DNA of 64,000 nucleotides from contig CAVWGN010000001.1 in NCBI GenBank assembly GCA_963754655.1, positions 2,592,001 to 2,656,000 on the forward strand, in the 5' to 3' direction. Positions 8,787-54,770 of this stretch are shown piece by piece (position 1 is the first letter of the stretch; each line of letters starts with the position of its first letter). Origin of the DNA: an uncultured Chlamydiae bacterium. GTDB lineage: Bacteria; Chlamydiota; Chlamydiia; Chlamydiales; Parachlamydiaceae. The position numbers and the translations under genes were made by a program. A model generated the notes under the pieces. The model made no database searches. It saw nothing but the letters and a program-made list of their open reading frames with translations, and had not been told where the DNA came from.

Positions 8787-9199
8787 TTTGACACTTGCAA
8801 CCTTCAGGCTGCATGACACAACCTCTTCATAGCCAGGGCGTTGCCCTGGCCTTGCACTTACAGCCCTTCAGGATGTAGGAAATCTCAGCTGACAATATTA
8901 GACCGCGGTCTAAAAGTACAAATAGCCCCAGGGAAAAGGAATTAACAAAGAACTGTTTTTGGGCTTGATACTCGTCTAGTCAAATTAATAATACCAGGCC
9001 TGTAACAGATTTTAGAGGCACTTTTCTCGAAAATGGCGCAAAAAAATATCCTAGGCTATTGTACTTTTAGACCGCGGTCTAATATTGTCAGCTGAGATTC
9101 CCTGCATCAGCCTGAAGGGCTGTAAGTGCAATAGACAAGGGCAATGCCCTGGGTATGAGTGAGTTGTGTCATGCAGCCTAAAGGGCTGCAAGTGTCAAA
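8787..9199. mobile_element. Giant palindromic element, family E (decaying)
   Basis: Imperfect inverted arms 8787-8927 and 9054-9199; each arm contains the perfect 16-mer ttagaccgcggtctaa and REP-like hairpins. Confidence 0.85.
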
Positions 9200-9276
9200 C
9201 ATTAACTGTTTTGACATCTCATTCCCTCTAATGATATGAAGGAAGCAGCAATAATTATTTGATTGAGGATGGATGC

Positions 9277-11190
9277 ATGACTTTCAAGTCAATGACAAGA
9301 CGTTTACCTATTGGGGCAGAGGTTGTCCCAGAAGGCGTTCACTTTCGTGTATGGGCACCAAAGGCACATACGGTAGAAGTTGTTTTAGAAAAAACAATGT
9401 CTGCAAATTCTGAACATTTTCTTGTCCGTCGCCTTGAACCCGAAGAAAAAGGCTACTTTTCTGGACTAATCAAAGAGGCTGCAGATGGAACTCTTTATCG
9501 TTTTCGAATTAACGAAGCACATTCCTTTTATCCAGATCCTGCCTCGCGTTTTCAACCTAATGGGCCTCATGGTCCTTCACAAGTGATTGATCCTTCGAAA
9601 TTTAAATGGAACGATCAACATTGGAAGGGGGTAGCTCTTGAGGGACGCGTTCTTTATGAGATGCACATTGGAACCTTTACAAGGCAAGGGACTTGGATTA
9701 GTGCCAAACAAGAATTGTTAGAACTAGCAGATTTGGGCATTACAATCATTGAAATGATGCCTGTCAATGAATTTCCTGGTCAATTTGGCTGGGGATATGA
9801 TGGAGTCAATTTATTTGCTCCTACGCATATTTATGGATCACCGAATCATTTGAAAGACTTTATTGATCATGCGCATTCTTTGGGAATTGCCGTCATTTTA
9901 GATGTGGTCTATAACCATTTCGGTCCCGATGGCAATTATCTGCGTGCATTTTCTGACCACTATTTTACCCATCGGTATGTGACCGAATGGGGAGATGCCA
10001 TCAATTTCGATGGTCCCGAGTCAGAAGAAGTACGCAAGTTTTACATTGCCAATGCTGGGTTTTGGATTGATGAATATCACTTTGATGGGCTGCGACTAGA
10101 TGCCACACAGAATATTTACGATACTTCCACACCACATATTCTCTCTCAAATTAGCCAGCAAGTGCGTAAAATGGCGCCTCACAGCCAAACATATATTGTT
10201 GCTGAAAATGAACTTCAACAAACAGAGCTTCTTCATCCCACTGAAGAGGGAGGAAATGGCTTAGATGCTGTGTGGAATGATGATTTTCACCATACTGCTT
10301 TGGTGCGTTTAACAGGACGCAATGAAAGCTATTACACCGATTATCTTGGAACACCTCAAGAATTTATTTCGTCAGTTAAATATGGCTATCTTTACCAAGG
10401 ACAATGGTACGTATGGCAGCAAAAAAAGCGAGGGACACCCAGCTTACATCTCAACCCGGCAGCCTTTATTACCTTTTTGCAAAATCATGACCAAATTGCC
10501 AATTCCGCCCATGGATTACGCCTTCATCATTTAACCGATCCTGGAAATTATCGCGCGATTACAGCGCTAATGCTTCTTGCTCCCGGTACCCCGATGTTAT
10601 TTCAAGGACAAGAATTTGCCGCTTCCACCCCTTTCTATTACTTTGCTGACCATACTCCAGAACTTGCTGAACTCGTTTTCAAGGGAAGACGCGACTATTT
10701 TAAGCAATTTGCCAGTATTGGCACTCCAGAAATTCAGGCTCGCTTGCCCAATCCCTCAGATCCTGCAACCTTTAATAAATGCAAATTGAACTTTTTGGAT
10801 CGTGAATACCATTCCCATGAATATGCCCTCCATCGAGACCTTTTGCGTATTAGACGCAATGATAACGTTTTTAATGTCCCTCGTTTAGGAGGTGTTGATG
10901 GAGCTGTTCTAAGCCATGACGCCTTTCTTTTGCGTTATTTTGGCGATTATGATGAAGATACCCGTCTTTTAATTGTCAATTTTGGTGTCGATCTTTCTTT
11001 TACACCAGCTCCTGAACCTCTATTAGCACCACCTGTAGGAACTCAATGGGATATCTTATGGTCAAGTGAAGATCCTCGTTATGGCGGCGGAGGAACTCCA
11101 CCTCTTTCTACAGACAAATACTGGCACCTTCTTGGGCATGCAGCCATCGTGCTCATTCCTAAAAAGGAAGGATTGGTGGAGTATGTATAA
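9277..11190 (+). CDS. treZ: Malto-oligosyltrehalose trehalohydrolase (GH13)
   Basis: FRVWAP, DPASRFQP.G..GPS, WGYDG, DVVYNHFGPDGNY, GLRLDA, QNHDQ motifs. Confidence 0.92.
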   Translation: MTFKSMTRRLPIGAEVVPEGVHFRVWAPKAHTVEVVLEKTMSANSEHFLVRRLEPEEKGYFSGLIKEAADGTLYRFRINEAHSFYPDPASRFQPNGPHGPSQVIDPSKFKWNDQHWKGVALEGRVLYEMHIGTFTRQGTWISAKQELLELADLGITIIEMMPVNEFPGQFGWGYDGVNLFAPTHIYGSPNHLKDFIDHAHSLGIAVILDVVYNHFGPDGNYLRAFSDHYFTHRYVTEWGDAINFDGPESEEVRKFYIANAGFWIDEYHFDGLRLDATQNIYDTSTPHILSQISQQVRKMAPHSQTYIVAENELQQTELLHPTEEGGNGLDAVWNDDFHHTALVRLTGRNESYYTDYLGTPQEFISSVKYGYLYQGQWYVWQQKKRGTPSLHLNPAAFITFLQNHDQIANSAHGLRLHHLTDPGNYRAITALMLLAPGTPMLFQGQEFAASTPFYYFADHTPELAELVFKGRRDYFKQFASIGTPEIQARLPNPSDPATFNKCKLNFLDREYHSHEYALHRDLLRIRRNDNVFNVPRLGGVDGAVLSHDAFLLRYFGDYDEDTRLLIVNFGVDLSFTPAPEPLLAPPVGTQWDILWSSEDPRYGGGGTPPLSTDKYWHLLGHAAIVLIPKKEGLVEYV

Positions 11191-53243: not shown

Positions 53244-54039
53244 TCCCTCTGGCTCTAAAGTCATCTTCATTGGTTCAGGAAAAGGAGGAGTTGGTAAATC
53301 CACCGTCGCAGTCAATTTAGCCATCGCTCTTGCTCAACAGGGATTAAAAGTGGGCCTTCTCGATGCTGATGTTTATGGTCCCTCTATCCCCATTATGTTA
53401 GGATTAAGACGTTTAAGCCCACGCATTGAGCGCTTGCCTTCGGGCGAGAATAAAATTGTTCCTCTGACTAAATTTGGCCTTCAAATTCTCTCTTTGGGAT
53501 TTTTCATTGAGGAAGCACGTTCTATTATTTGGAGAGGTCCTATGCTACATGGGACTTTGCAAAAAATGCTACAAGATGTCATGTGGGGTGAACTTGATCT
53601 GCTACTCGTTGATCTCCCACCTGGAACGGGTGATGTCCTTCTTTCACTCTCACAATTGCTGAAAGGAGAAGGTGCTTTGGTGGTATGCACACCTCAAGAG
53701 GTGGCCATGTTGGATGCTATCAAAGCCATTAATGCATTTGATCAACTGGATATTTCCTTATGGGGGATTGTGGAAAATATGGCTGGATTTCAAGCCCCAG
53801 AGACTCAACAGATCTATCACATCTTTGGTCAAGGCAAAGCACAGGAACTAGCTGCACGCTTTCACACTCAAGTCCTCATCAGTATTCCACTCATTCCTGA
53901 GATTCGCCAAGGAGGCGATGAAGGAATTCCAAGCGCTCTTTACTCCACTCTTCCTGCAGGCGATTTATTTCAAAATCTTGCCAAGATTGTCATACAGCGC
54001 TATCTGCAACCCATTTGTAATCCTTTCCACTCATTTTAA
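53233..54039 (+). CDS. Mrp/ApbC/NBP35-family ATPase
   Basis: SGKGGVGKST, DADVYGPS, WRGPM, DLPPGTGD, ENM. Confidence 0.93.
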   Translation: MTLNPSGSKVIFIGSGKGGVGKSTVAVNLAIALAQQGLKVGLLDADVYGPSIPIMLGLRRLSPRIERLPSGENKIVPLTKFGLQILSLGFFIEEARSIIWRGPMLHGTLQKMLQDVMWGELDLLLVDLPPGTGDVLLSLSQLLKGEGALVVCTPQEVAMLDAIKAINAFDQLDISLWGIVENMAGFQAPETQQIYHIFGQGKAQELAARFHTQVLISIPLIPEIRQGGDEGIPSALYSTLPAGDLFQNLAKIVIQRYLQPICNPFHSF

Positions 54040-54114
54040 AATTTGCAAAACTTTAGTGATCATGTCAATGCTTTTAGGGCTTAAATTTAGCGTTTTGCAC
54101 TATTCTTTTTCGTA

Positions 54115-54770
54115 GCCCACAGCTGGGACTTAACATTTAGTACTCCATTACATTAATTTTAGCCTATTGGGATTGCTTCAAAGCTCCCGCGGTTGGGATG
54201 AGATGATTCTCTTATAGTCCTTCAGACTACATGACGAGAGCTAATCTAACCCAGGGCGATGCCCTGGGCTATTTTTATTTGAAGCCCTTCAGGCTCTGAA
54301 CATTGGACATTTTTGGAAGACCTCCTTCTATAACAATTGTAGGGCCATGCCTATTAAATGGTACATCCTCCACAATCCTTTTTAGAGACGGTTAACAAAA
54401 AGATGTCCAATGTTGAGAGCCTGAAAGGCTTCAAATAAAAATAGCCCAGGGCTGGGACTTAACAAAGAACTGTTTTGAGCTTGATGTTTTTCGCGTCATT
54501 TTCGAGAAATATACCCCTAAAGCCTGTTACAGGCGTGGTGTTGTTAAATTGACGCGATGAATATCAAGCCCAAAAACAGTTCTTTGTTAAGTCCCGACCC
54601 TGGGTTAGATTAACTCTCTTCATGTAGTCTGAAGGACTACAAGAGAATCATGTCATCCCAACCGCGGGAGCTTTCAAGCAGTTCCAATGGGCAAAAACTA
54701 ATGTGGTTGAGTACTAGATGTTAAGTCCCGGCCCACAGCCAGCGCAAGCGCAGCTGTGGGTTCACGAAAA
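54115..54770. mobile_element. Nested palindrome complex: family C copy 2 (54138-54716) inside TGGGACTTAACA ends (54124-54730), with a second GGGACTTAACA element (54453-54596) in its right arm
   Basis: 9-bp direct repeat gcccacagc at 54115-54123 and 54731-54739; arms homologous to 42176-42583. Confidence 0.9.

Follow-up and report, generated by a model that had tools for sequence, protein, structure and literature searches.

The stretch analysed here, 64,000 nucleotides from an uncultured member of the Parachlamydiaceae (assembly GCA_963754655.1, contig CAVWGN010000001.1, positions 2,592,001 to 2,656,000; hereafter the window), carries eight palindromic elements which, in our judgement, are probably non-autonomous composite transposons. 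Their cores would be inverted doublets of modules that belong to Y1 transposase genes, their shells the ends of DDE-type insertion sequences (IS), and their arms would have been mirrored onto each other. The original prediction had guessed at a hybrid between MITEs (miniature transposable elements with inverted repeats) and REPINs (doublets of repetitive extragenic palindromic, REP, sequences). This guess was right, and can be sharpened to REP-like doublet cores in DDE-transposon shells with target duplications. A search for partner transposases, which had also been suggested, yielded six intact Y1 genes and an IS701 remnant outside the window, and an ISKra4 element in other chlamydiae.

Palindrome searches of the window and of the genome (G000, a 3.12-Mb chromosome, C1, which holds the window, and a second contig of 35 kb, C2; other genomes and contigs bear G and L numbers) recovered all eight elements at the predicted coordinates. 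The predicted folding of almost the whole length applies to all of them except E and C2, each of which carries the 144-bp MITE X. A1 has a folding energy of -295.5 kcal/mol, where its shuffled versions average -50.4 (z -51.9; 0 of 100 shuffles as low). The layer order is M1-M2-M9-core-M9-M2-M1 in the A elements and M1 around the core in B and C, with a further X-type layer in C2. Since A, B and C share their outer shell and 246 of 284 palindromes genome-wide link into one cluster, they are not independent families; D (35 palindromes) stands apart. The elements and their parts are listed below in window positions, with strand where one applies and, for whole elements, arm length, arm identity and loop length (nt) in brackets.

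8772-9199: element E, a decayed C/E-type three-hairpin doublet with arms 8791-8875 and 9108-9195 and a remnant of shell M5 at the left (135 bp, 86.7%, 143)
8938-9045: decayed copy of MITE X in the loop of E, 86% over 108 nt, inverted match to 54487-54594
17150-17651: element A1, four layers by module tiling (230 bp, 99.1%, 42)
17152-17201 and 17600-17649: shell M1 of A1, with TA duplication
17204-17250 and 17551-17597: shell M2 of A1, by module tiling
17252-17276 and 17525-17549: shell M9 of A1, by module tiling
17278-17376 and 17425-17523: core (A) of A1, by module tiling
17319-17373 (+), mirror copy 17428-17482 (-): A-module hairpins 2-3 in A1, Acido-Lenti-1 match, 35.2 bits, E 2.8e-4, with the gathering score at 37
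17650-17689: older M1 end remnant adjoining A1, from a direct-repeat family, with a similar remnant at 32528-32567
20956-21452: element B, shell M1 at 20958-21012 and 21396-21450, B-module doublet at 21031-21165 and 21242-21377 (210 bp, 91.9%, 77)
26735-27055: element D1, ISKra4-type shell at 26735-26790 and 27001-27055 around a D-module doublet (122 bp, 94.3%, 77)
31443-31948: element A2, four layers like A1, loop reversed, Acido-Lenti-1 matches at 31614-31668 (+) and 31723-31777 (-) (232 bp, 97.8%, 42)
42176-42594: element C1, shell M1 with decayed left end, C doublet at 42221-42320 and 42439-42538 (162 bp, 99.4%, 84)
42652-42973: element D2, built like D1, loop reversed, exact target duplication no longer present (122 bp, 96.7%, 78)
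47562-47629: partial solo B module behind groEL, from a direct-repeat family and module tiling
54124-54730: element C2, X-type 14-bp ends at 54124-54137 and 54717-54730, then M1 at 54140-54190 and 54664-54714, then the C doublet (133 bp, 88.7%, 341)
54453-54596: whole 144-bp MITE X, inserted at hairpin 2 in the right arm of C2

Exact 9-bp duplications flank D1 (26726-26734 and 27056-27064) and C2 (54115-54123 and 54731-54739), the limits of C2 being corrected to 54124-54730. All eight elements are intergenic, as had been stated, the right end of B overlapping the miaA stop codon (21450-21452), and none of the 284 palindromes lies inside an open reading frame (ORF) of at least 250 amino acids (aa). 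Nor was a transposase found in the window: no such domain was detected in the 44 ORFs scanned out of 54 with at least 100 aa, and tblastn with 12 resident IS proteins and nine Y1 proteins gave a single match of 12 aa. At gathering threshold, Rfam models found only a tRNA in the window. The density of one element per 8 kb is as predicted, and about typical of the genome (1 per 11 kb). By seed search, the 284 local palindromes, a handful of them unrelated to these families, make up 130 kb or 4.1% of the genome, while tiling with 24 modules gave 403 clusters over 147 kb. The elements occupy about 4.6% of the genome.

Three-hairpin cores and their Y1 genes

The cores are inverted pairs of three-hairpin modules, and similar modules flank Y1 genes elsewhere in the genome. 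PF01797 has nine genomic matches, all outside the window: two of IS200/IS605 type, six intact genes (R2-R7) and one truncated gene. R3 and R5 are 98% alike and the remaining R genes 37-49%, the six amounting to five sequence types, present in low copy number. Five of the six encode the motif Y---Q--HH (R6 has Y---Q--YH), a signature of TnpA-Y1 subclass 1.2 (PMC6006769) that recurs in 25 of 29 Y1 loci of relatives. Two of the genes, scored over their core region, reach 65 bits with the IS200 model NF033573 (cut-off 55) and 23-26 bits with NF047646, the model for RAYTs (REP-associated tyrosine transposases; cut-off 80). We assign the genes to subclass 1.2 by motif and model score.

Cores and genes can be paired. 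Module A matches the flank of R4 (89% over 107 nt), D that of R2 (80% over 54 nt), and F, a family outside the window, that of R6 (77% over 128 nt). A B doublet lies directly 3' of R7 (80% over 349 nt), and R3/R5 are paired with C, which resembles their 3' flank (84% over 70-73 nt), and with E, whose module resembles the 5' flank of R3 (80% over 46 nt). Each Y1 gene has its own module downstream and often also a mirror-image copy upstream. Family M6, with an A core, is 95-96% identical to the 3' flank of R4 over 150-170 nt, and its loop contains a deleted piece of the Y1 gene, matching the R4 coding sequence at 79% over 95 nt. M6 thereby looks like a direct intermediate between a gene unit and a gene-less doublet.

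In relatives too, the module follows the Y1 stop codon in most of the 29 loci. Among the 28 with enough flank, 20 of the 3' flanks scored above a shuffled null, and in 18 of these 20 the fit is to the module that goes with the closest own Y1 protein (0 of 20,000 permutations). The 40 doublet loci of 10 relatives span 179-546 bp, mostly less than 300, and duplications of at least 5 bp near the ends occur in six of the 40, a figure without computed control; bare doublets are therefore frequent in the family. The same inverted three-hairpin layout was recognised by eye at one locus on a Bacteroidota plasmid, and viral Y1 matches are distant (29-34%). In an unsystematic look at the 5' foot typical of short REPs, GTGG precedes the main hairpin in the D module consensus, and the invariant columns of the A module hold no GT[AG]G foot. 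As a first step, gene-less inverted module pairs similar to REPINs would arise from such Y1 gene units, the Y1 protein presumably acting on the modules.

Insertion-sequence shells and target duplications

The modules outside the cores have sharp ends and are mostly absent from Y1 loci, the exception being an M6 end at R4. The elements combine terminal inverted repeats with a lack of coding capacity, as in MITEs, and several shells leave a duplication of their own length. An exact 9-bp duplication flanks 11 of 25 D copies, and 15 of 25 with at most one mismatch (permuted 0.4 and 0.6); for X, it is found at 6 of 26 solo copies (permuted 0.9) and 7 of 26 X-F-X composites (0.8). M9 has an exact 8-bp duplication in 4 of 15 copies and one with a single mismatch in four more. 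Copies are few for M11 (6 bp exact in four of six), M6 (6 bp in three of five) and M10 (7-8 bp in five of nine). Many copies lie within other repeats, which allows their empty sites to be reconstructed, and we sought each junction elsewhere in the genome after removal of n bp. Matches peak at 2 bp for M1 (8 of 56, with one at any other length), at 9 bp for M2 (10 of 50, with 2, 4 and 3 at 7, 8 and 10 bp) and at 9 bp for X (10 of 26 and 7 of 26). Judged by these sequences, the shells behave as DDE ends. X and F modules were also seen in tandem chains of several units (X-F-X-F-X) at G000:C1:413213-416323.

Two shells could be traced to a parent. An exact 21-mer of the D end matched two metagenome contigs, and one of them, L048, carries an almost complete IS with a terminal repeat identical to the first 25 nt of D. 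Its transposase belongs to the ISKra4 family (E 1.7e-55; the C-terminal frame by itself scores 188.9 bits, the cut-off being 205) and is seemingly encoded in two frames, at a nine-A run that is a likely -1 frameshift site (L048:430-530). Relatives of this element occur in 7 of 72 family genomes, and ten ISKra4-type copies have duplications of 9 bp (nine copies) or 8 bp (one), as D does. The second case is M11, a shell around M9-A outside the window, which matches a broken IS701-family element (G000:C1:500735-503254). In each of the six M11 copies, the two arms are similar to the 3' end of that IS, one reference arm agreeing with it at 37 of 45 positions, against 25 of 45 for the 5' end. The broken element also contains fragments of ISAs1 and IS630 transposases.

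For the other shells only hints were obtained. The TA duplication of M1 within CTAG presumably points to IS630, and the 8-bp duplication of M9 is, we assume, a hint at IS1595. A resident IS630 was considered as parent of M1 and rejected, only its first few bases being in common, so that it hints at most at the family. CTAG itself occurs at half its expected count in the genome (5428 versus 11004); even so, M1 is found mainly at this tetranucleotide, which a 23-copy IS5-like element uses as well. Neither IS1595 nor DDE_Tnp_1_5 transposases were detected in the genome, nor any transposase with M1-M10 ends except IS nested within repeats. The D and X shells found only short, chance-level matches in 250 genomes of the order (one of them limited or unscored). 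The X pattern matched no viral locus, four genome loci, all within unrelated genes, and no plasmid, where M1-M2 gave nine weak matches; the M1 pattern matched once in three congeners, with no adjoining transposase seen. A candidate trans mobiliser of X and M2 is an IS of 1846 bp with a 470-aa frame and no NCBIfam match (G000:C1:69957-71802 and nine further copies). Nine of its 10 copies are flanked by 9-bp duplications, and the copies lie mostly at hairpin 2 of repeat modules. Its target and duplication length are those of X and M2, while its ends differ. C-inner was rejected as a MITE of this IS: its first 10 bases are the same, yet none of seven pairs has the duplication.

As the second step, we propose that DDE IS or their MITEs insert into a doublet, frequently at hairpin 2, or next to it, that their ends come to flank it on both sides, and that the whole unit is then moved in trans as a MITE by a DDE transposase, leaving the shell's own duplication. 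This would have happened at least eight times, with 2 bp for M1, 9 for M2, D and X, 8 for M9, 6 for M11 and M6, and 7-8 for M10. Duplications, empty sites and two parent IS together suggest that the shelled elements have transposed. Shell capture at this scale was seen in this genome only. The single example elsewhere is G285, of another genus, with an empty 128-bp M2-type MITE and a 459-bp palindrome in which an M2-type shell surrounds a different module doublet; G009 has M2-type ends.

The same observations bear on another way of moving such elements, by the Y1 proteins themselves as single-stranded hairpins. The elements would then be true REPINs, the shells passengers and the duplications relics. 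The genome encodes six intact Y1 proteins that have the HUH and Y residues, most shell parents were not found, only six of the 40 relatives' doublet loci described above show a duplication, some doublets have copy-specific inverted flanks, and R2 itself is situated in the loop of a palindrome whose arms measure 157 bp and whose outer part is low-copy (G000:C1:2939102-2939969, L002), all of which would fit. However, the duplication length at unrelated sites is particular to each shell, and cores and shells occur in various combinations: core A is surrounded by at least five different shells, and M1 is found empty or with any of three cores inside. Moreover, target duplication is not known from HUH transposases. 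We therefore regard movement by Y1 proteins as unlikely.

Arm mirroring and competing explanations

In 43 A-inner copies, the two arms of one copy are 99.2% alike, and arms from different copies 97.9%. Sixty-one variants are present on both arms, compared with a mean of 10.9 and a maximum of 25 after re-pairing, and 14 of 32 private variants are mirrored. The signal is weaker in D, with 23 both-arm variants (re-paired 7.3, maximum 12) and 8 of 44 private variants mirrored. M11 copies likewise have copy-specific mirrored changes. Of 90 doublets, 9 combine a left with a right M9 end, 74 have two left and 2 have two right ends, and 5 are unclear, as expected for an asymmetric ancestor mirrored in either direction. 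M1 elements coexist as an empty 160-bp MITE, as an asymmetric form of about 560 bp with A-inner in one arm, and as a symmetric form of about 500 bp, which would derive from the 560-bp form through a deletion, between the two copies of an 8-bp palindrome, that removes the inner hairpin. Loops are found in both orientations (24/19 in A-inner, 13/12 in D). Since asymmetric and both symmetric forms coexist and private mutations are often mirrored, it appears that arms have been copied onto each other.

Imperfect palindromes are known to become perfected through template switching. In the third step, one arm would serve as the model for the other, most likely when replication switches templates at a hairpin, and inner hairpins would be lost between short direct repeats, turning asymmetric composites into near-perfect palindromes; both the enzymology of this step and its direction from asymmetric to symmetric are what we infer. 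Nesting, copying between arms and deletion between short repeats can together explain the long arms. The original prediction had taken the abundance of such palindromes as a sign of active generation or maintenance against cleavage by SbcCD. We found no support for active maintenance of one new system: sbcD has no match in the genome, and sbcC only two weak N-terminal matches without a full gene. The lack of SbcCD would rather make the products tolerable. No more than 6 of 73 family genomes have an sbcD match above cut-off, so that the absence is permissive rather than specific.

A number of observations weigh against the composite-transposon reading as a whole. Movement is indicated only by traces in the sequence. 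No parent was found for M1, M2, X, M9, M5, M6 or M10 and, because no ISKra4 transposase was found in G000 and the IS701 element is broken, whatever moved D and M11 has either disappeared or escaped recognition. TA flanks M1 in 49 of 56 copies against 48.3 permuted, which on its own could equally reflect the palindromic end, so that the M1 duplication stands on the eight empty sites. M2 has exact 9-bp duplications in 1 of 50 copies (permuted 1.3), and with one mismatch in 12 (4.4). No own duplication was found at the C-inner, B-inner and F-core boundaries; the motif test assigned no shell to 111 of 284 palindromes, and an exact outermost duplication of at least 6 bp is kept in only 42 of 278 (random control 2.6%). 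Private variants are mirrored in 0 of 16 cases in M6 and 0 of 16 in the X terminal repeats, and M1-160 has 22 both-arm variants, within the permutation range (maximum 23). The 18 of 20 matching flanks of relatives are not independent evidence, the relatives being kin. Loss of sbcD is not required, since G285 has sbcD along with its 459-bp shelled palindrome.

The missing mirrored variants of X and M6 would also suit a single founder per family, made symmetric by two chance inverted insertions and with no continuing copying between arms, as would X-F-X, in which two whole inverted X copies surround a core with asymmetric outer parts. The mirrored private variants of A-inner and D, though, are far above the few-percent divergence between copies, and the changes specific to single M11 copies and the existence of left-right, left-left and right-right M9 forms speak against such founders, which we consider improbable as the general source of symmetry.

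Within the composite-transposon reading, a further role of the Y1 proteins is conceivable, although we are doubtful about it. Subclass 1.2 proteins might be resident hairpin nucleases which nick modules in single-stranded DNA, so that repair copies arm and flank across and thereby does the mirroring. Palindromes would then grow outward around any doublet, and a single IS end beside a module would become a two-ended MITE, an HUH enzyme thus making transposons for DDE enzymes. This would also explain the copy-specific inverted flanks of relatives, which were found in G007 and G016 and not clearly in G017 and G020; in G007, 4 of 12 doublets have 11-12 of 12 flank bases paired.

A quite different explanation sees in the modules expressed and selected RNA or regulatory elements, such as transcript stabilisers, kept for the benefit of the host. 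Hairpins 2-3 of the A module indeed match Acido-Lenti-1 (RF01687), which Rfam classes as a small RNA. The window copies score 35.2-36.4 bits, less than 2 bits below the gathering threshold of 37, and the motif is above cut-off in 27 of 73 family genomes and matched in 11 of 29 foreign Y1 loci. In 72 family genomes, Y1 genes of subclass 1.2 and the motif occur together in 27, Y1 alone in 6, the motif alone in 9 and neither in 30 (odds ratio 15), a tally made by hand over non-independent kin, many of whose genomes are incomplete. Conservation of the three A-module stems over 12 sequences, with both sides changed in 6 of 17 pairs, and the intergenic position of every copy would agree with an RNA. 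Such covariation fits a single-stranded DNA hairpin equally well, however, and the modules lie at Y1 genes and follow the protein type. Loops occur in both orientations, and the gene context of the elements is near background (tandem 145, convergent 45 and divergent 37, versus 509/146/219). At three orthologous sites checked in congeners, no repeat modules were found, divergence being too high for base-level empty sites: HAD and nadD, which A1 separates here, are adjacent in G001, mrp and DEAD are about 0-100 bp apart in G002 and G003 versus 796 bp here, and congeners have no module behind miaA. A function as host RNA is thus an improbable explanation for these modules.

An assembly artefact by fold-back is hardly credible, even though no listed read or contig spans a whole palindrome, given the conserved asymmetric loops in both orientations, the arm mismatches, the target duplications, the IS and MITE insertions in single arms and the related doublets in 10 other genomes. 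In a short-read soil assembly, the strain is thinly covered (eight unique pieces, depth 2.4-4.3, 0-1 differences) and the repeats are deeply represented, with a summed depth of up to about 400 and loose ends matching resident IS ends. As this soil may be the source sample and none of its listed pieces spans a whole palindrome, it is the internal evidence that tells against an artefact.

Genomic setting and relation to known systems

Further features of the window and genome may be recorded here. By its genes, the chromosome appears to be that of a chlamydia. Directly behind element E lie treZ-like and glycogen-debranching genes (window 9259-13273). A unit of about 1.44 kb is tandemly duplicated at 5162-7726 and 7813-8655, with two genes of about 292 aa and a related-looking 280-aa gene on the opposite strand; by eye they share an HSS motif region, and the two scanned have no Pfam family. 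At 60656-63303, the neighbouring genes 60723-61925 and 62095-63699 contain 75-bp tandem repeats and DUF4116; a third paralogue lies beyond the window, and the DUF4116 family looks strongly expanded genome-wide. The start of the chromosome (C1 about 1-10002) repeats the end of the 35-kb contig (C2 25940-35310) over 9-10 kb, by integration, duplication or assembly overlap.

The elements share with REPINs or BIMEs (bacterial interspersed mosaic elements) and their RAYTs the gene-less inverted doublets of a repeat flanking the cognate Y1 gene, one repeat type per gene, the intergenic position, and compensatory changes across the hairpin, which are known in REPINs (PMC3116915, PMC3337134). They differ in that the unit is a three-hairpin module of about 100 nt instead of a REP of about 20-40 nt, the gene is IS200-like and under the RAYT cut-off, and the elements measure 300-900 bp, with DDE shells and target duplications. 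With a partner that is no RAYT and with DDE ends, they are not REPINs in the strict sense. The genes agree with TnpA-Y1 subclass 1.2 in the motif of five of six, in low copy number and in their IS200-like core. Members of this subclass are described as generally lacking typical IS200 terminal structures and as occurring mostly in Cyanobacteria and Bacteroidetes, and the accessible part of PMC6006769 reports no repeats for them, whereas here, in Chlamydiae, the cognate module of each gene is amplified to tens or hundreds of copies. Acido-Lenti-1, catalogued as a probable RNA (PMC2864571), would be two thirds of a Y1-tied DNA module: the A-module hairpins 2-3 are near its cut-off and copies of relatives above it, while its model misses the B, D and F modules of the same architecture. 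The motif is not discussed in the text supplements of Weinberg 2010 (PMC2864571), another supplement of which may cover gene context.

Bacterial MITEs moved by DDE transposases (PMC3184786), with ISKra4, IS701 and IS630 among the families concerned, are alike in terminal inverted repeats, family-specific duplications, ends of real IS and the absence of coding sequence. Here, in contrast, both arms can be mirror copies of one IS end, a captured Y1-type doublet forms the interior, unrelated shells are nested up to four deep and arms reach 120-230 bp. TIRtrons or TIRYTs, most of which are placed in subclass 2.1 (PMC6006769), also have Y1 genes between long inverted repeats, which occur as dispersed dimers too, but the available part of PMC3733652 does not describe dimer mobilisation by captured DDE ends. 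IS homing to hairpins has a precedent in the REP-targeting IS1397, IS621 and IS1594 (PMC3184786). Altogether, the elements appear to work like DDE-moved MITEs that carry a REPIN-like cargo. Every component is of a known kind, and what appears new is the nested, mirrored assembly and the tracing of two shells to parent IS (D to ISKra4, M11 to IS701). In the literature searched, which covered few subscription journals and included for background PMC7999016 and the accessible part of bioRxiv 10.64898/2026.10.21.760802, neither REP-type doublets in DDE shells nor such repeats of environmental chlamydiae were described.

The genome would thus show on a concrete case how very long palindromes and new MITEs can originate in a bacterium, with intermediates and products side by side, and the elements also seed landing sites for IS. 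It supplies five natural pairs of enzyme and substrate for the uncharacterised Y1 subclass 1.2, by which the roles of this subclass and of Acido-Lenti-1 become directly testable, and it joins HUH-linked REP doublets with DDE-moved MITEs, which are usually treated apart.

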